Source of the DNA: Candidatus Saccharimonas aalborgensis
GTDB lineage: Bacteria; Patescibacteriota; Saccharimonadia; Saccharimonadales; Saccharimonadaceae
Assembly (NCBI GenBank): GCA_049288955.1
Contig: JBAQIS010000021.1
Coordinates: 22,364 to 86,363, forward strand
Direction: 5' to 3'
DNA: 64,000 bases
Positions within the stretch are counted from its first letter, which is position 1. Each line of letters begins with the position of its first letter. The notes beneath the pieces were generated by a model. The model had not been told where the DNA came from. It saw only the letters and a list, made by a program, of their open reading frames with translations, and did not search any database. Positions 32,793 through 52,824 of the stretch are shown in pieces. Made by a program: the position numbers and the translations under genes.

Positions 32793-32909
32793 GTGAGTGG
32801 TCAATCCTTTCAGAAGTAAGATCAAATCAGTGATTGGTTAGTGAGCAATTATGACGAGATCCTACGTATTAGCTTTGATATTTTTCGACCATATTGTTAA
32901 GTGACGACA

Positions 32910-33033
32910 ACCTAAGTCTCATTAATTCTCCACTCCAGACAACCGGCCCGCCGCTCACTGATTAGCCTTCGCCTTGGCGGGCCTTGGCCCATCAGGGCCA
33001 ACTGTCTGTCGGAGGAACTGTTGAGATTTAGGT
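32910..33033 (+). repeat. Structured GC-rich repeat, copy A (about 124 nt)
   Basis: Outer stem ACCTAAGTCTCA/TGAGATTTAGGT; core CCACTCCAGACAACCGGCCCGCC...GGCGGGCCTTGGCCCATCAGGGCCAACTGTCTGTCGGAGG shared with copies B and C. Confidence 0.85.
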
Positions 33034-33202
33034 ACGACATTCAGGTAATGAACTAAAAAAGCTTTGGTTCATTACCAAAGACTTGCGGAAAAAGATGAAT
33101 TTCCCCTCGGTAGCGAATTAAGCAATTTCTTGCAGCTACTGTCTTTAGGTAATGTCTAGTCGCTAGTATAGCATGGACGGAGCTACTTTTCAAGTTGCAA
33201 AA

Positions 33203-33329
33203 ACCCGAGTCTCATCCCCTCCCCACTCCAGACAACCGGCCCGCCGCTAACTGAATCAGCCTTCGCTCTTGGCGGGCCTTGGCCCATCAGGGCCAACTGT
33301 CTGTCGGAGGAGGGGTTTGAGGCTTGGGT
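33203..33329 (+). repeat. Structured GC-rich repeat, copy B (about 127 nt)
   Basis: Outer stem ACCCGAGTCTCA/TGAGGCTTGGGT (two G-U pairs on the plus strand only); core 96% identical to copy C. Confidence 0.85.
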
Positions 33330-33356
33330 GTAATATGTGCTATACTACACTTAGAA

Positions 33357-34289
33357 ATGAGCGCTCGTCGGCTAAGCTCCCCAAAGGAGCCACTTCCTCG
33401 TTTTTTTCCGAATTCTGCTCCGGAGACGATAAAAGATGTCATGCGTTCCCCCCTGGTGCTTGATAAACCACCCTTTACGTATCACCCCCTTTCACCAACG
33501 CCACTTGATCCGCATCTCCTCCATATTAAGGGTGGACCACGTTATAACGAGCATGCGCTTAGCTATATGGTTGACGCATCGCGCCAGGTCAGTATGGGTC
33601 GGTTTGCCTCAAATGAGCAGGTGGCAGACTGGATAGGGCATCGACTTGCTACCGTGCCAAATGGTCACGTCAATAGTCTTGGAACAGAGGTGGTAGATAG
33701 CACCTGGATATCGGTTCTCTCGGAGATTATGGCTCAACATGAGCTGAAGCAACATCGTAATGATGCAGCAGTGCGGCTGCTTTTTGATGATACGACCCCT
33801 ATTACTCGAGATGAAGCCGAAGAACTGATGCAGATCAGGGCCGGTATTGCCTCGCCAGAAGTAATCCTCAGGTTTTTTGCCCGGCACCCCGAACTTGGCG
33901 GCGTGGAACTGATGAAAGCAACCCGTGCCTTGCAACCGGAACAAATACGGCAGGCAAGAGATGAGTTTTTGGGTATGCTGGCCACATCATCGGAGGCGCT
34001 CGACATTGAGTTTCTCGATGAGCCTCCCTATCGTCGTATCCAGATTGAAGACCCAAGAATTATCGTGCTCAAGACTCGACTGGCGACCGTGGCGCATAAC
34101 GGTATACTGATGGAAGTCGTGATGCGCGATAGCGGCGTGATTCTTGATCAAGCTCAAGATGACCTTACTACCTCCTACATGACAGGCCGAGACGAGGAGC
34201 GGCGTTCTCTCGTGTATGTTGCGCCCATCGCCATCACTGCTTACGCAAGGATGGCGGCGGTACAGGGTCAGGATGAAGCGAGTAGTTGA
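33357..34289 (+). CDS. Hypothetical protein
   Basis: About 310 aa; the ORF-track start at 33324 lies inside repeat copy B, so the start was moved to the ATG at 33357 (TTGAGG-18-TATACT promoter-like sequence just upstream); start remains uncertain. Confidence 0.5.
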   Translation: MSARRLSSPKEPLPRFFPNSAPETIKDVMRSPLVLDKPPFTYHPLSPTPLDPHLLHIKGGPRYNEHALSYMVDASRQVSMGRFASNEQVADWIGHRLATVPNGHVNSLGTEVVDSTWISVLSEIMAQHELKQHRNDAAVRLLFDDTTPITRDEAEELMQIRAGIASPEVILRFFARHPELGGVELMKATRALQPEQIRQARDEFLGMLATSSEALDIEFLDEPPYRRIQIEDPRIIVLKTRLATVAHNGILMEVVMRDSGVILDQAQDDLTTSYMTGRDEERRSLVYVAPIAITAYARMAAVQGQDEASS

Positions 34290-35650: not shown

Positions 35651-36454
35651 TTATCTTATTGTAACATGTGTTTTAAGGACGACGATCGAGTGGACTGGTG
35701 ATGGGGTGTGGAACTTCAGCTCCCTCACGAATGCGCTTGATAATGGTGCTCGTTTTCCAATTATCACCAGTTTGGGGATGAGAACGTAGGGGTCGACCCC
35801 ATCGGCGATTAGTACTGGGTTGAGACCGCGATCTCGCGCTTCTTGGACAACTGCGGGTTGTTCGTCAAAGACGACCAGTGTATCGAGCAGCCCGTGACGT
35901 GCCAAAAACTCTGCGAGGATAAGGGATGATTCGAGGCAGGTTTCTTGATGAACCGGATCACCCTCAACGGTGACTAGGTCGATTACGGGAAGAAGTCCAA
36001 TGGTGCTATCAAAGCTATAGCCTGCGACTCGGTTGGCGCGTGTTTCCCATGGATAAATCGGACGCGGTACGCCTCCTTTTGCTTCGACACCACCCTTTTT
36101 TGCTGCAACTTTGTAGTCAGCGTCGACGGTGACGGCAAGTGAAAGTGCGGGTTGCGCAACAGCAGCCTGTAAACTTTCGACCGTGACAGGGTGATTGTGC
36201 GCCTGCAAAAAAGCCCGTGCACCGAGCAAGCGGACGTGCCGTAAATACCATTCATGATTATCGTGCGGGACATCAAAAGCACCATCAACCAGCGTAATAT
36301 GGCTATGACGTATCTCGCGAAGGTGTCGAAATGCGGCAAGCACTACTGCATCCGTATACTCGGGTTCTGGGTAGAGCAGACGCTCGGGCGCACGCAGGGT
36401 CGGCCCAAATACTTCAAATACATCTGGATTTCTATCACCTAACTCACGCGCCAT
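35651..36454 (-). CDS. Cytidylyl/adenylyltransferase-like protein (HldC/TagD-like fold), paralog 1
   Basis: 267 aa; VDGAFDVPHDNHEWYL (compare GxFDxxHxGH), VTVDADYKVAAKKG...RPIYPWETRANRVAGY. Confidence 0.6.
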   Translation of the reverse strand: MARELGDRNPDVFEVFGPTLRAPERLLYPEPEYTDAVVLAAFRHLREIRHSHITLVDGAFDVPHDNHEWYLRHVRLLGARAFLQAHNHPVTVESLQAAVAQPALSLAVTVDADYKVAAKKGGVEAKGGVPRPIYPWETRANRVAGYSFDSTIGLLPVIDLVTVEGDPVHQETCLESSLILAEFLARHGLLDTLVVFDEQPAVVQEARDRGLNPVLIADGVDPYVLIPKLVIIGKRAPLSSAFVRELKFHTPSPVHSIVVLKTHVTIR

Positions 36455-36509
36455 AGCAGTCTCCTCCAGTCACTCTATCGATAGTGCTATGGTACAGATG
36501 ATTTATCGT

Positions 36510-37292
36510 TTAATCAAGGGGGCTGGTGATGGGATGTGGTACGGGTTCACCTTGAGCACGACGAATAAGATCACTACTGCTCCAGGGCCTATCGGTTTGT
36601 GGATTGAGCCCAAATGGTATGTCGTCAGGGTTGATAACGATGGGGTTGAGTCCTGCTTCGGTGGCTTGGGTCAGAGCGGCCGAATGTTCTTTATTGATGA
36701 CAACATTGTCGAGGAGGTCTCTCTCAGCGAGAAATATAGCGAGAGACACAAATGACTCGAGCGCAGTGCCTCGGTGAACGTGATCGCCCTCTACCGTTAC
36801 TAGGTCAGTGGTGGGTACGTAAAGCCCCGATGCTGGCGCAGTTTCAAACGTATAGCCAGCTACCCGATCCGCACGTGCCTGCCATGGATAAATGGGGCGC
36901 TGAACGCCTCCTTTTTCGGCAAATCCACTCTTTACATGGGCGACTTTATGATCTGCGTCGACGGTGATTGCAGTGATAACGTCAGGAGAAATAAGCATAT
37001 TGCGCACCATATCGGGAGTTGGCTCAATGCCTCGTGCTATGAGTGATGCAGCAGCGCCAAGGGCTCGCGTATGGCGAACCATCCATTCGTGGCCGTCGTG
37101 TGGTACGTCAAAAGCTCCATCCGCAAGAGTGATATTGGTATGATCACTGCGTCGACGGAGTGAAGAAAAAACAGCCGTAACAGCTTGGTCGGTCTCTTCT
37201 GGTCTTGGATAGAGTAAACGATCTGGCGAACGAAGGGTTGCGCCAAATACCTGAAATACGTCCCGCTTGTCAGGGGTACCACCAAATGCCAT
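36510..37292 (-). CDS. Cytidylyl/adenylyltransferase-like protein, paralog 2
   Basis: 260 aa; ADGAFDVPHDGHEWMV, ITVDADHKVAHVKSG...RPIYPWQARADRVAGY, C-terminal RPWSSSDLIRRA (compare RxxGxSTTxIIxRI). Confidence 0.6.
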   Translation of the reverse strand: MAFGGTPDKRDVFQVFGATLRSPDRLLYPRPEETDQAVTAVFSSLRRRSDHTNITLADGAFDVPHDGHEWMVRHTRALGAAASLIARGIEPTPDMVRNMLISPDVITAITVDADHKVAHVKSGFAEKGGVQRPIYPWQARADRVAGYTFETAPASGLYVPTTDLVTVEGDHVHRGTALESFVSLAIFLAERDLLDNVVINKEHSAALTQATEAGLNPIVINPDDIPFGLNPQTDRPWSSSDLIRRAQGEPVPHPITSPLD

Positions 37293-41447: not shown

Positions 41448-42446
41448 TTAATTTACTTGATTTTCGACTTTGATGCCTGGCCCCATAGTAGTGGCGATGG
41501 CAGTTGATTTCACATAGATACCCTTGAGGCTCGATGGTTTTTGGCTCTGTAAGCTGCCAAAGAACGCTCGGGCGTTTTCCTCGAGTTTGTTGGCGCCAAA
41601 TGATACCTTGCCAATACTGAGGTGGATTGTTGCTTGTTTGTCGACTCGGTATTCTACTTTTCCGGCCTTTGCTTCGGTCACTGCCTTTGCAACATCAGCG
41701 GCAACCGTGCCGCTCTTTGGATTTGGCATGAGGCCTTTTGGCCCGAGGAGACGGGCGTATTTGCCCAGTCGTGGCATATAGGCAGGGGTAGATACGAGAG
41801 TATCAAAGGCTATTTCACCCTTATCGAGCTGCTTCAGGAATGTTTCGTCACCGACGACATCGGCACCGGCTTTTTTGGCAGCGTCGTGTTCGGTTTCGGG
41901 AGCAAACACAGCCACGCGCACTGTTTTACCGGTGCCGTTTGGCAGTGTCACGGTTGCGCGAATGTTTTGATCAGCCTGGCGAGGATCAACACCAAGGCGT
42001 ACGTGCACTTCGACGCTGGCATCAAATTTACTTGGGTTTGTCTTGGTGGCAAGCTCCAATGCTTCGCCTAGGGTATACACTTTTGCGGCTTCGACGAGTT
42101 TGGCGACTGCTTGAAACTTTTTGCCACGGCGTTCGATGAGTGGTCGAACCTTTGGCGCAGGGCCTTTCTTTTCGTGAGCTACCGCGTCTCCTTGAGCAGT
42201 GGTGTCGTGTGCTTCTTTGCGCGCTTCTTTTGCGGCTTTTTCTTCAGCCTCTTCGAGCGCCTTTTCGCTGCGCTTACCGGCTTTGGCAACGTCAGCTTTG
42301 CGTTCAGCAACCACTTCTTTATCTACGGCTGGCTTCTTTGTCTTTGCGCCTGCGATTAGACTCTCGAGATCAGCGATGGTCGCCTTTGCGGGCACCTCGA
42401 TCTTTAGTTTTGCTGCTTCTTCAATAAGTTCGGCTTTTTTTGCCAT
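41448..42446 (-). CDS. rplA: 50S ribosomal protein L1 with about 100-aa Lys/Ala/Glu-rich N-terminal extension
   Basis: 332 aa from MAKKAELIEEAAKLKIEVPAKATIADLESLI (AGGAGA RBS); the C-terminal about 225 aa is canonical L1. Confidence 0.9.
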   Translation of the reverse strand: MAKKAELIEEAAKLKIEVPAKATIADLESLIAGAKTKKPAVDKEVVAERKADVAKAGKRSEKALEEAEEKAAKEARKEAHDTTAQGDAVAHEKKGPAPKVRPLIERRGKKFQAVAKLVEAAKVYTLGEALELATKTNPSKFDASVEVHVRLGVDPRQADQNIRATVTLPNGTGKTVRVAVFAPETEHDAAKKAGADVVGDETFLKQLDKGEIAFDTLVSTPAYMPRLGKYARLLGPKGLMPNPKSGTVAADVAKAVTEAKAGKVEYRVDKQATIHLSIGKVSFGANKLEENARAFFGSLQSQKPSSLKGIYVKSTAIATTMGPGIKVENQVN

Positions 42447-42517
42447 ATCAGTATCTCCTGCGGTAGTAGCGGTGATTCGATCACCTCCCGACATTACAGT
42501 TGTATGATGCTAGTATA

Positions 42518-44801: not shown

Positions 44802-44934
44802 GAGGTGTTCCTCATCTCTCTAATCGGGAGAACTGACAAAATATATTGTAGAATAAAAAAGTTATATTGTAAATACTTATACGAAAAACGCCTCCGAAAC
44901 CTATCGGGGGCTTTTTCGTCCTCACTATCTCGAG

Positions 44935-46310: not shown

Positions 46311-46391
46311 TGTTTCTAGTATACAGCTTTTGGCAGACACAAATCAGTACTCATAGTGGTGAGTTATGTGATAATGCCGTTGCTAAGATTT

Positions 46392-48185
46392 CTAGTAAAC
46401 ATACTGATTATTTAAAGGGTGCAGAAAGATCGCGTCTCTTGGCTGCCGCACTGTGCCCGGCGTGGTGCTACCAATACCAATTTGTCCATCACTATTTGCA
46501 CCCCAACAATAGCTAATATTGTTCGCGATAGCGCATATGCGCATCGCGCCACCTGTGAGGCCGTATATCCTATTGTTTGCGAACACACTGGGAGTATAGG
46601 TATCAGTGACAGCGACCGGCACAGCCGTACGAACCGATGCCCCATCGCCACGCGTGGATGACGCGCCCCAGCAGTAGGCTCGACTGGTGTTTATGTCGCC
46701 GCCCGTATAGGCGGTGACGCAACCACCTCCCGCCGACGTACCAAGCTCCACGGGCGTTCTGCCCGACAGCACACCCGATGTTGATACTGCTTGGGGTGCG
46801 ATGTATAACCACGCAGGAAACGTATTGCCGCTGAGGCCCATAGTGCCGTTGTTTCCCAGGCCGCCGTCTAGATTGCTGCCCCAGCAGTAGGCGCGGGCAT
46901 CGGCAGTGGTTGTCGTGTAGGCGATCGCACAAGTGTGTGCGTTGCCTTGTGCAATACCTCCGTTCACCCCGGGTTCATAGTAAGCATTGCCATCGCCAGT
47001 GATGGCAATGACTTTTTTACCCGACAACGCCCCTCCGGTGTAGACAGCAGTGGGGACGATAGCCTTGTTGGTGGCATTAGTTCCTGTAGGCATCACATTT
47101 ATTCCGAGCTCACCGTCTTGGTTGCTCCCCCAGCAGTAGGCCACGAATGAGGCGATGGCACAGATGTGGTTGTTGAAAGCTCCTGAGGGTGATACGTACG
47201 AGATAGTTTTGTTGGCAAGGGCACCATAACCTCCCGAGGGGCCGCCGATGAGCACAGGAGTTAGCACCGAAACATTTGAGGATTTATTATTGCCCACCTG
47301 ACCGCTAGAGTTGCTCCCCCAACAATAGAGCTCTCCGCCGTCAGTGAGCGCACACGCTGCGTTGCCGGTTACCCCTAATTTAAGGACATTTTTGCCCACT
47401 AGACCACCAACTTTTACTGGCACTGAACTATCGGTTGTTGAATTGTTACCCAGCTGACCCTGGTTGTTCCTTCCCCAGCAGTATGCCTCGCCAGTTTCAA
47501 TAACAACACAGTTGAAATAGCCTCCCGATGCCATCTGTGTGACTTTGTAGGCGCCAATGCCGCTTGGATACGGATCGCGCTTCACTTTGACAGGAATTAG
47601 GCTGTCAGTTGTTGTGCCATTGCCAAGCTGGCCATACTGGTTCCTCCCCCAGCAATATGTACTGTAGGAGAGCACGCCGCAGGTGCGCAGCGTGCCACTC
47701 GTAGACTGTTGGCTCGAAAGCGTTGGATCCCAGGTGAGAGTTTTTTTGACAAGGCTCGTATATGTCTTTGTGCTCCCGCCCGTGCCAACGGTTGCAGTTC
47801 CGGTTGCAGATATTTGCACACTGTTACCAAGGCTGGCATCGAGGTCACCTACGCTATATGTGGTGGTGAGGCCTGTCCGTGTGTACACAGACGATGGATA
47901 GCCTCCGATCGTTGCCCCGCTACAGTCAGTTTGTGGTGTTAGGTTGGGTTTGCTTGCGGCTGGGCCCCATGTTTGCACATGCCCAGATGCTTCGAGGCAA
48001 CTAGCGGCGTACGACGTACCCGCTTCAGCGGCTTGCTCAGCGAGCCGCATATAGTATCGGCTCTGAGTGATCGTGAGAAGAGTTGAGCTGTTTTGTAGCA
48101 ATGATAACAAAATTGTGAGTACGACAATCGACAACACAAGCATAGCTGGCAGAGAAAAGCCCTCCTGAGATCGTACAGTCCTCAT
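46392..48185 (-). CDS. PilX-like pseudopilin N-terminus fused to an RCC1-repeat beta-propeller
   Basis: 597 aa; N-terminal EGFSLPAMLVLSIVVLTILLSL; at least 7 repeats of YCWG(S/R)N..GQLGN. Confidence 0.8.
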   Translation of the reverse strand: MRTVRSQEGFSLPAMLVLSIVVLTILLSLLQNSSTLLTITQSRYYMRLAEQAAEAGTSYAASCLEASGHVQTWGPAASKPNLTPQTDCSGATIGGYPSSVYTRTGLTTTYSVGDLDASLGNSVQISATGTATVGTGGSTKTYTSLVKKTLTWDPTLSSQQSTSGTLRTCGVLSYSTYCWGRNQYGQLGNGTTTDSLIPVKVKRDPYPSGIGAYKVTQMASGGYFNCVVIETGEAYCWGRNNQGQLGNNSTTDSSVPVKVGGLVGKNVLKLGVTGNAACALTDGGELYCWGSNSSGQVGNNKSSNVSVLTPVLIGGPSGGYGALANKTISYVSPSGAFNNHICAIASFVAYCWGSNQDGELGINVMPTGTNATNKAIVPTAVYTGGALSGKKVIAITGDGNAYYEPGVNGGIAQGNAHTCAIAYTTTTADARAYCWGSNLDGGLGNNGTMGLSGNTFPAWLYIAPQAVSTSGVLSGRTPVELGTSAGGGCVTAYTGGDINTSRAYCWGASSTRGDGASVRTAVPVAVTDTYTPSVFANNRIYGLTGGAMRICAIANNISYCWGANSDGQIGIGSTTPGTVRQPRDAIFLHPLNNQYVY

Positions 48186-48964
48186 GGATGGTTCACCCGC
48201 GTGATACGCATTGTTGTCGTACTTGCTATCGGGGAGCTGCCCTGAGTTGCTAGTGTGAGTGTGATGCCAACGCTGTCCATCGTATCAAGGACCGCTGGGT
48301 CGCTTGACGAATAGACATCTGTAGGTGACGTGTCTGTGCCAGAGTAGTAATCGATGGCAAAGCCGGATACGTTTTCCGCGATCACCTCATCGGCAGCTTT
48401 GCATATGGCATTCCAGGGACTGACACTCGGAGGGCATGATTGTTTTTGGTATTGCGGTGGATTGCAGGTTGCCGTTGTTGAGTCGGTAATCGTGCGCCGA
48501 AACAGGGAGTTGTTACGTACAAAATATACAATAAGGTACGGTAACTTTGGGTTATCGTACAAGTTGGTTGCGCAGCTAAATGCCCCTTGCTTATAGACGG
48601 CCTGGCGCGTGTTGCCGAGGGCGTTAGTGGTTGTCGCGTACTGACTGAGCAAAAGTGATCGCGTAGTCGATGATGTGCCGCTATAGGTGACGGGGGTGCC
48701 GCCATTATCTCTGCCATATGGATCACTAAAACCTGCGGGCATGCTTGTAGAAAATGCAAAACTATAGCGCACATCATGTTCCAGCACCGACATCCCAAGC
48801 TGTGCTGTTGCATCGAGCGAAGCTTGAGTGACCATTCGGCTTGATTGGCGGTAGTTATCAATATATATCGTAAATATTGCAGAGGATAAGATTGCAAGTA
48901 CGGTCATGGTGACGACGAGCTCAACAAGTGTAAAGCCTGGACTGGAATGCTTAGTATGCTTCAT
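48182..48964 (-). CDS. Minor pilin (PilW-like), prepilin-type N-terminus
   Basis: SPGFTLVELVVTMTVLAIL; 4-nt overlap with the downstream gene. Confidence 0.75.
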   Translation of the reverse strand: MKHTKHSSPGFTLVELVVTMTVLAILSSAIFTIYIDNYRQSSRMVTQASLDATAQLGMSVLEHDVRYSFAFSTSMPAGFSDPYGRDNGGTPVTYSGTSSTTRSLLLSQYATTTNALGNTRQAVYKQGAFSCATNLYDNPKLPYLIVYFVRNNSLFRRTITDSTTATCNPPQYQKQSCPPSVSPWNAICKAADEVIAENVSGFAIDYYSGTDTSPTDVYSSSDPAVLDTMDSVGITLTLATQGSSPIASTTTMRITRVNHP

Positions 48965-49352
48965 AGCCTGCATAGACAAACTCCGTGTTATTTGCTCCAT
49001 ATGTCACTTTCGACGTCACTGCTATTACACCAGGGCATCCGTATGGCGCCGAAGCGGTTACTAGCTGTGTGACCGGAGATGGTAACCCGCTGATGCCTGC
49101 AGTACTATTGAGGAGGGTGGCGGTACTACCAGCGTTACAGTTAAACCAGTTGCGCGCGCCGCTGCCATTCACATATTGACGCAAGTTGGCGTAGGATAGG
49201 TTGTCTGCTGTTGTTCGACGTGATGTACTGACCGAAATGGTTAGCGAGGAAATGCCCAGTCCCAGTATGCCGAACAGGAATATACTTGAAGCAATGATCG
49301 TGACGATGACCTCTACCAGGGTAAACCCTGACTGCCCGCTGCGAGCGATCAT
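48951..49352 (-). CDS. Minor pilin (PilV-like), prepilin-type N-terminus
   Basis: QSGFTLVEVIVTIIASSIF; 133 aa; ATGA overlap with the upstream gene. Confidence 0.75.
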   Translation of the reverse strand: MIARSGQSGFTLVEVIVTIIASSIFLFGILGLGISSLTISVSTSRRTTADNLSYANLRQYVNGSGARNWFNCNAGSTATLLNSTAGISGLPSPVTQLVTASAPYGCPGVIAVTSKVTYGANNTEFVYAGYEAY

Positions 49353-49819
49353 TGTTGCCTCATACTTTCCCTGACCATAGTGCTACCAGTTGCCTCGCTG
49401 TAATAATAGAGACGGTATCTGACACAGGGTGCGGTGCTACAGAGGGTGCCGGTTGCCGTAAATGGCTGGTAGATATAGGTATTTTGGGTGGCGGTTGCCG
49501 GCGAGGTTGATGAGGCGTTTACTAGGCTATATGAGGACTGTTTTGGTGCGATAAATATATCTTTACCATATGTTGCGGCAATACTGTCAAGCGAGCTACT
49601 AATATCGCTGGTTGTGGGGTAGCCGGGACCACTTGTTGAAGCATTGAGTCGGTAGTAGTCTTCAAACGCACGCCCAATCGATGCAATATCGTTTTGTCGC
49701 TCAATATCTCTGGAACGATTTAGTAGTAAGGGGTCGGCGGCTATGGCAATAGCTGCCAATATCGTGACAATAGTTACAACCACAACGACTTCTACTACGG
49801 TATACCCACGCTCTATCAT
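49349..49819 (-). CDS. Pilin-like protein (FimU/GspH-like position), prepilin-type N-terminus
   Basis: MIERGYTVVEVVVVVTIVTILAAIAIA with Glu at +5. Confidence 0.7.
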   Translation of the reverse strand: MIERGYTVVEVVVVVTIVTILAAIAIAADPLLLNRSRDIERQNDIASIGRAFEDYYRLNASTSGPGYPTTSDISSSLDSIAATYGKDIFIAPKQSSYSLVNASSTSPATATQNTYIYQPFTATGTLCSTAPCVRYRLYYYSEATGSTMVRESMRQQ

Positions 49820-49918
49820 AGTTATATACCTATTGTATGCGAAAAACCAGAAACAGCAACCATGTAGTTACTATGTTTAGGCAGTGCTCCTCTAATAAGT
49901 GCTTCATTTGGGCGGTGT

Positions 49919-50882: not shown

Positions 50883-50970
50883 GTGAACTCCCTTCGTTTG
50901 GTGCCACGGACCGTTCCGTAGCGAGCAGGGGTAACTATATCAGATTAGACGTACTACGTCAAACAATAAT

Positions 50971-51047
50971 TGGTCGGGGTGACTGGATTTGAACCGGCGA
51001 CCTCACCGTCCCGAACGGTGCGCGCTACCAAACTGCGCCACACCCCG
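50971..51047 (-). tRNA. tRNA-Pro (anticodon CGG), CCA encoded; T-stem has a C-A mismatch
   Basis: Hand fold: acceptor CGGGGTG/CACCCCG, D-arm GCGC-AGTTTGGTA-GCGC, anticodon arm CACCG-TTCGGGA-CGGTG, T-arm GCCGG-TTCAAAT-CCAGT (one mismatch, one G-U). Confidence 0.8.
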
Positions 51048-52034: not shown

Positions 52035-52058
52035 ACTCGGGTGTCCCAGCACCCGAGT
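52035..52058 (+). terminator. Hairpin after the CdsA-family gene
   Basis: ACTCGGGTG-tcccag-CACCCGAGT followed by CTTTCTTTATCT. Confidence 0.5.
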
Positions 52059-52071
52059 CTTTCTTTATCTG

Positions 52072-52186
52072 TGCCTCCCCCCTCCCCACTCCAGACAACC
52101 GGCCCGTCGCTAACTACATCAGCCTTCGCTCTTGACGGGCCTTGGCCCATCAGGGCCAACTGTCTGTCGGAGGAGGGGTTGAGGCA
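52072..52186 (+). repeat. Structured GC-rich repeat, copy C (about 115 nt)
   Basis: Core matches copy B with 4 substitutions in 100 nt, two of them a compensatory pair in the 8-bp stem (GCC/GGC to GTC/GAC). Confidence 0.85.
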
Positions 52187-52268
52187 TAGCCTCTATATAA
52201 TTGACAAAACAATTATAAAAGTATACTATATATTATACCTAACCCCGAGTAGAATAAGAGGACTCCTT

Positions 52269-52796
52269 ATGGGACGTTTTGAGGCTCCGAATGGGCACGA
52301 CTTCTGGCTCGTCCAGGAGATCTGCAACAACCCACACAATCCCGCGACGTGGAACTTCATGGACACGCTATCGGTCTCGCCGATGCCTGCCACCGAGTTC
52401 CAGGGTGGCCGACTCGAGCAAGAGCTGGCCAGCCTGCGCGTTGAGCACCCCGGTGAGTTTATCACCATGGGGGCTGTTATCAGCGTTGCTGATGTCAGCC
52501 GGACCGTGTTCCTCGTCTGCCCTATCCGGGCCCTGCATGGGCTCGTGGACGATTTCGAGCAGTGGTTCAGGGATCCGACGGAGGTCATCCACCGGACCAA
52601 GGTCCCGACCCGGTTCGGACACGCGTTCCTCAATAAGCAGCACCTCCATGGTGTCAACGCGGCCGACAGCGGATCGTACAATGGTCGCATCGTCGCCTGG
52701 TGGTCGCTCGAGGACCAGGTGTTCTGGACGCTGGATGCCATGATCGCGCGCCACATCTGTTCGTGGCTGAACGGAGAGGAGTTCACCGAGGGGTAA
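52269..52796 (+). CDS. Hypothetical protein (175 aa, about 60% GC)
   Basis: AAGAGGA RBS 6 nt before the ATG; TTGACA...TATACT promoter-like sequence at 52203-52230; no motif recognised. Confidence 0.55.
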   Translation: MGRFEAPNGHDFWLVQEICNNPHNPATWNFMDTLSVSPMPATEFQGGRLEQELASLRVEHPGEFITMGAVISVADVSRTVFLVCPIRALHGLVDDFEQWFRDPTEVIHRTKVPTRFGHAFLNKQHLHGVNAADSGSYNGRIVAWWSLEDQVFWTLDAMIARHICSWLNGEEFTEG

Positions 52797-52824
52797 GCAA
52801 ACCCCGCACTGCATTCACAAGCTC

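Follow-up and report, generated by a model that had tools for sequence, protein, structure and literature searches.

The Correia elements of Neisseria, the ERIC/IRU sequences of enterobacteria and the RUP elements of Streptococcus pneumoniae have inverted ends, duplicate their target, contain no open reading frame (ORF) and occur in tens to hundreds of copies. Correia elements duplicate the dinucleotide TA and have well-conserved ends; RUP and certain others have a known matching insertion sequence. REP/BIME repeats, with their RAYT transposases, and palindromic elements derived from IS200/IS605 are structure-rich and extragenic, are often located at 3′ ends between convergent genes, and preserve structure over sequence. 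In the Bacillus cereus group, the repeat bcr1 is MITE-like and variably placed, is flanked by short direct repeats, and adopts a cruciform-like fold that is kept by compensatory changes (PMC3184786).

Here, we analysed a structured repeat in a 64-kb stretch of DNA from Candidatus Saccharimonas aalborgensis (64,000 nucleotides in full, hereafter the window), with particular attention to one of its copies, copy C. We estimate a probability of roughly 85% that copy C belongs to a family of non-autonomous DNA transposons (MITEs), 124–128 bp in length, in the Candidatus Saccharimonas aalborgensis lineage, as indicated by the combination of inverted ends, a 6-bp target duplication, small size, lack of an ORF, dispersed copies and polymorphism. 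The literature that we searched held nothing relevant on MITEs in Saccharibacteria or Patescibacteria.

Three copies of a structured repeat in the window

A repeat search revealed exactly three copies in the window (A, B, and C), all on the + strand, and a covariance model built from 16 copies recovered the same three (Table 1). For the 20–25-mers shared by the three copies, the chance expectation is 0–0.01 occurrences. An initial annotation, made from the sequence of the window, had described a third copy of a structured repeat at 52072–52186; both searches confirmed this copy within slightly wider limits that enclose this interval, the ends of copy C being set by alignment together with empty and relic alleles. 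Copy lengths range from 124 to 128 nt among 18 aligned copies. Copies B and C are 96% identical over 102 core nucleotides, corresponding to four differences, the same number as the initial annotation had counted over about 100 positions. Two of these, GCC to GTC at 52107 and GGC to GAC at 52135, affect mutual partners in the 9-bp stem of hairpin 1, while the remaining two (CTGAATCAG to CTACATCAG) are located in the hairpin-1 loop, in agreement with the variable loop to which they had been assigned. The outer stems of copy C (CTGTGCCTC / GAGGCATAG) and copy B (GAGTCTCA / TGAGGCTT) differ in sequence, and both are paired. No ORF belongs to the repeat, and those crossing copy C are mechanical read-throughs only.

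Table 1 Coordinates of the repeat copies, their structural parts and neighbouring features in the window
Feature	Position	Strand	Remarks
Copy A	32910-33033	+	124 nt; covariance-model score 138.9 bits
Copy B	33203-33329	+	127 nt; covariance-model score 155.2 bits
Copy C	52067-52191	+	125 nt; covariance-model score 144.9 bits
Copy C, outer stem/terminal inverted repeat	52069-52077 with 52181-52189	+	fold
Copy C, C-rich stem	52079-52087 with 52169-52178	+	fold
Copy C, CAGACA/TGTCTG stem	52092-52097 with 52161-52166	+	fold
Copy C, hairpin 1	52101-52109 with 52133-52141	+	fold
Copy C, hairpin 2	52142-52148 with 52153-52159	+	fold
T of compensated pair	52107	+	partner A at 52135; C-G in most copies
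A of compensated pair	52135	+	partner T at 52107
Hairpin-1 loops	C 52110-52132; B 33247-33269; A 32954-32974		
Candidate decayed target duplication of copy C	left TCTTT 52062-52066, right TCTAT 52192-52196	.	putative, read from the sequence; not exact
Empty target ATAATT	50966-50971	.	adjoins tRNA-Pro 3′ end; single ATAATT in window
Empty site	44877-44879	.	copy present in L021, CP005957.1, CP065015.1 and two further genomes
Terminator-like hairpin of cdsA-like gene	52035-52058	+	just upstream of copy C; kept in element-free strains
Promoter-like site of 175-aa ORF	52201-52229	+	TTGACA-17-TACTAT; outside element; conserved in element-free relatives
175-aa ORF	52269-52796	+	downstream of copy C, not part of element; lineage-restricted
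Promoter-like site of ORF with ATG at 33357	33317-33346	+	TTGAGG-18-TATACT, TG extension; promoter scan
L10 leader (Rfam RF00557)	33046-33167	-	49.7 bits (gathering score 44); lies between copies B and A

The fold is preserved by compensated base changes

Every copy adopts a Y-shaped fold with a nearly invariant core; the fold is built from two hairpins and three stems, namely the outer, the C-rich/G-rich, and the CAGACA/TGTCTG stem. The folding energy of copy C is -67.4 kcal/mol (z = -6.6; equalled by 0 of 200 shuffles), and z-scores of the fold range from -5 to -7 when computed as RNA and from -6 to -10 when computed as DNA, on either strand. Standard pairs occupy 96.2% of the cells in the 18 aligned copies. 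Both sides had changed in 12 of 40 pairs, compared to 4.6 ± 1.4 pairs in column shuffles (0 of 500 reached 12) and one to four pairs in slid controls with the partner moved by 1–3 columns; this alignment was fitted to the covariance model and therefore favours structure, and a plain MAFFT alignment of 16 copies gave a similar result with nine such pairs. All four main helices showed covariation. In a diverged copy in locus L030 (WBZP01000338.1, ~95% identical to the window), 39 of 40 pairs are Watson-Crick and compensated changes likewise affect each helix: hairpin 2 changed from C-G to G-C, hairpin 1 from C-G to T-A at a different position, the CAGACA stem from A-T to G-C, and the C-rich stem from CCC/GGG to AAA/TTT.

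The pair 52107/52135 was found in three states among the 18 copies, CG in 15, UA in two (copy C and the L023 copy), and C·A in one (copy A of L029). The L022 copy is the orthologue of the L023 copy, yet carries C-G at this pair, and in run X9 nearly all copies have C and G at the equivalent positions. These three states, together with the general compensation across the element, indicate that the double change in copy C is not an isolated coincidence, the outcome that the initial annotation had named as speaking against it. Its view that the double substitution is compensatory and leaves the stem of hairpin 1 intact was thus borne out, as was the more general proposal, drawn from the differing outer stems of copies B and C, that structure is kept rather than sequence. 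These analyses demonstrate that pairing across the whole element is maintained by compensated changes.

Copy number and distribution

The window and CP005957.1 (1,013,781 bp, GCA_000392435.1), which we take to be Candidatus Saccharimonas aalborgensis, encode identical NusG proteins. In run X9, the summed contig depth of the repeat core was ~1250–1560 compared to ~30–40 for single-copy flanks, with similar ratios in runs X15 and X1, and dozens of different sequences flanked the core in the DNA runs. This corresponds to roughly 25–45 copies per genome, contig depth being a crude measure to which related populations add. The 18 aligned copies, from the window and further loci, represent 11 independent sites. 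Nine contigs were recovered in a metagenome search with a core 20-mer; the runs that contain the repeat are from wastewater, activated sludge, and biofilm. At the rplK locus, several contigs break off within the repeat.

Scans of the GTDB species representatives with the 20-mer and with a gapped pattern returned nothing. Because the CP005957.1 copy fits the gapped pattern and was nevertheless unreported, this collection appears to miss or mask the species cluster; in addition, diverged copies resembling that of L030 would escape such scans, and absence of the repeat from other species is therefore weakly shown. No match to the repeat was found in viral contigs, phage records, or plasmid records.

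Insertion with target duplication and subsequent loss

All copies end in imperfect terminal inverted repeats, 5′-A[C/T]C[T/C][G/A]AnTCTCA[C/T]CCCCTCCCC with the complement at the 3′ end, which correspond to the outer stems of the fold. In every copy, the outer 12 nt and the C-rich/G-rich stem are complementary between the two ends, for example ATCTGAGTCTCA...TGAGACTCAGGT.

An exact 6-bp duplication borders copy A on both sides (ACGACA, 32904-32909 and 33034-33039). A contig of run X26 joins 32902 to 33033 and represents the empty copy-A allele with a single 6-mer, in which 130 nt, i.e., the 124 nt of the copy plus 6, are skipped. The diverged L030 copy is inserted at the tRNA-Pro site and has ATAATT on both sides (ATAATT / AATTAT), the window providing the corresponding empty allele. 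When the left flank of each site was compared as a control with the right flanks of different sites, none of 110 pairings matched over more than 3 nt at offset 0, indicating that the two exact 6-mer duplications did not arise by chance. From such simple insertions, each with its 6-bp duplication and corresponding empty allele, it follows that the element itself is the mobile unit. Two observations count against a MITE in this respect: an exact duplication is present at only two of the 11 sites, older copies being decayed or ambiguous, and the insertion at site 44878, where filled and empty alleles occur together in run X9, replaced one base and left no clean duplication.

A third allele was observed in run X9 at 44877, with at least 1.1 kb of unrelated sequence that begins ACCGTACTCATTCACCACCTTTGCAACCTA (ACCGTACTCATTCACCACC) and whose first bases loosely resemble the 5′ arm of the element. 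The inserted sequence may represent a distinct or larger mobile element.

Where the window has copy C, CTTTCTTT is directly followed by TGGTTGACA in L030 and L031, with no trace of the element, and L032, L033, and CP005957.1 hold a relic of ~17 nt, ATCTGGGTCTCAAAGTC, between two TCTTT repeats. This relic consists of the consensus 5′ arm and the last few bases. Two independent deletions begin directly after the 11-nt 5′ arm of copy C, namely the CP005957.1-like relic and a 721-nt deletion (52078-52798) in window-like strains, which takes out the inner part of copy C together with the promoter and the complete 175-aa ORF and carries a 14-nt filler, ACCAGGCGGTAGAA. The latter allele (joint 52077 to 52799), found in RNA runs X25, X26, and X29 and in DNA run X15, retains the copy-C-specific 5′ arm ATCTGTGCCTC and is therefore derived from an allele that already held the element. 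The element can be lost again, either completely or leaving an arm relic. Overall, four sites (A, C, 44878, and tRNA-Pro) are polymorphic between close strains. No empty alleles were seen at site B and at two L022 sites, copy B being present in all strains examined.

At an intergenic site upstream of the atpD 3′ end (L024:4993-5120), the strains of runs X9 and X1 carry an element of opposite orientation and with different arms beside a relic 3′ arm, GGTGAGGCTTAGAC, which suggests repeated insertion or replacement at one place.

Shared loop variants

In orthologous copies from strains whose flanks diverge by 5.5%, divergence amounts to 10.6% in the hairpin-1 loop and 4.1% elsewhere in the element. 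The loop variants form a small shared set (CTG-ATTAG, CTGAATCAG, CTACATCAG, and CTAAATCAG), each of which goes with either the presence or the absence of a T farther along. Orthologues may differ in their loop variant while the site-specific outer stems stay the same, and at site A the copies of the window, L029, and L021 each have a different one. Judging from the aligned sequences, short-tract gene conversion between copies is the likely source of these variants. Such conversion among ~25–45 copies would shuffle the hairpin-1 loops and might also carry paired variants, for instance T-A in copy C, from one copy to another.

Genes beside copy C occur without the element, and a link to islands is not supported

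Copy C lies between the terminator-like hairpin of a cdsA-like gene and the promoter-like site of a 175-aa ORF. L030–L033 and CP005957.1 keep the order cdsA, terminator, promoter, 175-aa gene, rplK, and the 175-aa gene is present without the element in L030–L035 and L036–L039. Terminator and promoter on either side of copy C thus pre-exist the element. We considered and rejected a 175-aa gene that travels with the element, since gene and promoter are at the same place in element-free genomes. The 175-aa ORF gave no Pfam match, and its protein has only three homologues, with 99, 83, and 75% identity. Next to rplK, this ORF diverges fast, as the latter two values compare to ~90–96% identity of the flanking DNA.

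A promoter scan located the promoter-like sites and ORFs (33357 and 52269) that, according to the initial annotation, follow copies B and C in the same orientation. A weak segment MGRF...W, mentioned there as suggestive only, is a chance similarity of the two downstream proteins: the best BLASTP E-value was 0.5, the segments were not aligned, and the proteins are unrelated. The first hexamer (-35, TTGAGG) of the promoter-like site of the ORF at 33357 is supplied by the 3′ arm of copy B, while the 5′ side of this copy abuts the -35 of a promoter-like site of rplJ (TTGAAA-17-TATACT). Copy A is located in the rplJ 5′ UTR, between the terminator-like stem of the L10 leader and the ribosome-binding site, antisense to rplJ transcription, and adds a hairpin of ~-50 kcal/mol to this UTR (window 32794-33167; rplJ ATG at 32794). 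Such local effects of copies A and B, a promoter-like hexamer in a predicted promoter and a 5′ UTR hairpin, are typical of elements of this kind. At least one related strain (run X26) is without copy A, which provides natural rplJ leaders of both kinds.

At five further sites, six copies each adjoin one or more housekeeping genes (queA, tgt, Vut_1 transporter, dus, atpD, sortase, smpB). Some partner ORFs at these sites are uncharacterised, and there is neither a common downstream gene family nor a fixed orientation. The ribosomal-protein cluster of the window is split into secE-nusG, an ABC transporter with two ORFs, rplK, ~10 kb, rplA, ~8 kb (tmk, dcd, thyA, folA), the L10 leader, and rplJ-rplL, an arrangement that is common to relatives irrespective of copy C. 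The sole true block difference that we saw is a 3.6-kb block (46334-49908), which is missing from CP005957.1 and present in several MAGs; it encodes an RCC1-repeat protein (46392-48185) and three pilin-like ORFs (48182-49819), and the covariance model, run over the window, placed no repeat copy at its borders. The initial annotation had placed the copies at or near the edges of two islands and suggested that the element could be connected with the arrival of this DNA. Neither a link to islands nor one to gene families was supported by the copies examined, given the island without a border copy, the six copies among housekeeping genes, the lack of a shared downstream gene family, and the relatives that keep the genes beside copy C with a clean empty site or a relic.

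Two further features of the window were noted. The hypothetical genes at 35651-36454 and 36510-37292 (both on the - strand, no Pfam match) share 129 nt at 72% identity (36009-36137 and 36844-36972), which suggests a possible tandem duplication within 35651-37292. The L1 ORF at 41448-42494 encodes 348 aa, with the L1 domain confined to residues 151–339, so either the true start is further in or the protein has an unusual N-terminal extension.

Less likely readings: structured RNA, single-strand transposition, or cassette boundary

A multi-copy structured non-coding RNA or cis-regulatory motif, with selection acting on the RNA fold and the copies being genes or UTR modules, would fit the very stable fold, the covariation in four helices, the position of copy A within the rplJ 5′ UTR and of copy B next to promoters, and the metatranscriptome contigs that span the element and connect it with adjacent genes. 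We nonetheless consider it very improbable. The stem mismatches of the 18 copies, read on the + strand, comprise 13 G·U, 11 A·C, and 16 others; as an A·C on this strand is a G·U on the opposite strand, mismatches show no strand preference. The element has no promoter of its own, and its orientation relative to neighbouring genes is mixed: apart from the antisense copy A, the L030 copy follows a tRNA in sense direction and others lie between convergent or divergent genes in each direction. With G·U and A·C about equally frequent and orientation mixed, nothing points to a strand-specific RNA. The core-to-flank depth ratio in the metatranscriptomes, ~30 in undirected contigs from which the strand is not readable, equals the DNA copy ratio, as expected from read-through or DNA carry-over. 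Searches against Rfam returned no match at gathering thresholds and only meaningless microRNA and lncRNA matches at E <= 10, and assignment to an Rfam RNA family was rejected on this basis. Moreover, exact 6-bp duplications with matching empty alleles are the marks of DNA insertion events. We conclude that the pairing is a feature of the DNA itself, preserved either as a symmetric palindrome or as matched ends. Covariation without strand bias, in strands that fold equally well as DNA, would also be explained by a structure-reading enzyme, i.e., by a hairpin element (REP/RAYT-like or IS200/IS605-derived) that an HUH/Y1 transposase mobilises in single-stranded form, and the insertion at 44878 without clean duplication would suit such an enzyme. 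The IS200/IS605 and REP/RAYT mechanism, however, makes no target duplications, and two sites carry exact ones. In addition, no conserved 4–5-nt sequence precedes the insertions on their 5′ side, a length of 125 nt with long terminal inverted repeats is unlike the 20–40-nt REPs, and no Y1 transposase was found in the window. A REP/RAYT or IS200/IS605-derived element was rejected for these duplications, the unconserved left flanks, and the lack of such a transposase in the window, and we give single-strand transposition of this type very little credence.

Likewise hard to sustain, and in our view largely refuted, is a recombination site or cassette boundary (attC-like, or an island border) that marks foreign DNA including the downstream gene. 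Its appeal stems from related strains in which the interior of copy C and the 175-aa gene are missing together, from the opposite-orientation element at one site in other strains, and from the position of B and C within a ribosomal-protein cluster that is split by other genes. However, the joint 52077 to 52799 derives from an element-holding allele, the 175-aa gene and its promoter occur without the element in L030–L035 and CP005957.1, six other copies at five sites have housekeeping neighbours, the pilin/RCC1 island lacks copies at its edges, and the proteins downstream of B and C are unrelated. The copies are dispersed, form no array, and have no integrase nearby. An integron attC or cassette array was accordingly dismissed, as copies are dispersed in both orientations and the gene beside copy C has a promoter of its own and occurs in element-free genomes. 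More weight, albeit still limited, can be given to a fold that is functional beyond being a by-product of inverted repeats, either for mobilisation as a folded single strand by an enzyme so far unlinked to such elements, or as a host structural module, for instance in the rplJ leader. This unlikely reading draws on the compensation of all helices, the core being more conserved than the ends, and the lack of a visible transposase. Greater conservation of the core than of the termini between copies is the reverse of what is expected for transposase-binding ends, and the internal hairpins are compensated as well, though a transposase need not read them; both points speak against a MITE. If the functional fold were true, either route would be new for the reduced genomes of Saccharibacteria.

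Discussion

A MITE family remains our preferred reading. The element is far smaller than the ~400 bp that bound such elements, has no transposase ORF, and combines terminal inverted repeats and target duplications with a copy number and presence/absence differences that are best explained by mobility. It inserts into intergenic DNA, where it duplicates 6 bp of the target, and we propose that a DDE-type transposase, encoded at another place, mobilises it in trans. Mobilisation in trans is suggested by the anatomy of the element: no transposase was detected among ~50 ORFs of the window scanned against Pfam, and no longer element bracketed by orphan repeat ends was present in 15 sources (the window and 14 loci). 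Pairing may be kept because folded DNA or matched ends are needed for mobilisation; alternatively, mismatches between the arms could be corrected within the palindrome.

The repeat represents a new family of a known kind, with dozens of active or recently active copies that make up ~0.5% of the genome, and indicates that Saccharibacteria genomes of ~1 Mb still carry mobile DNA. It creates strain differences beside core genes (rplJ leader, tRNA-Pro, rplK neighbourhood) and breaks short-read assemblies, in which contigs end inside copies. For annotation, copies should be masked as repeats rather than called RNA genes or island borders. The family also illustrates, in a clean natural case, how a DNA palindrome evolves by compensated changes, and provides a ready strain marker for Ca. 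Saccharimonas in wastewater.

Like Correia, ERIC/IRU, and RUP elements, the Saccharimonas repeat is found near gene ends, with side effects on promoters and mRNA structure. It differs from Correia elements in its 6-bp duplication, in outermost 12 nt that are variable with covariation, and in an internal core that is the most conserved part, and from RUP in that no partner corresponding to the matching insertion sequence was found in the window and 14 loci. With REP/BIME and IS200/IS605-derived elements it shares richness in structure, an extragenic position, and the preservation of structure over sequence; those elements are shorter, lack such terminal inverted repeats, and make no duplication, whereas the Saccharimonas repeat has exact 6-bp duplications. 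The closest likeness in layout and fold is to bcr1 and the group-A repeats, which, like the Saccharimonas repeat, are ~125–155 bp long, dispersed, intergenic, and strain-variable, with direct-repeat flanks and a compensated branched fold (PMC3184786). Hosts differ, the Bacillus cereus group for bcr1 and a Saccharibacterium with a ~1 Mb genome here, and specific transcription has been shown for bcr1 (PMC3184786). The direct repeat is 5 bp in bcr1 and 6 bp in the Saccharimonas repeat, and the likeness between them is one of layout and fold, with no sequence similarity expected.
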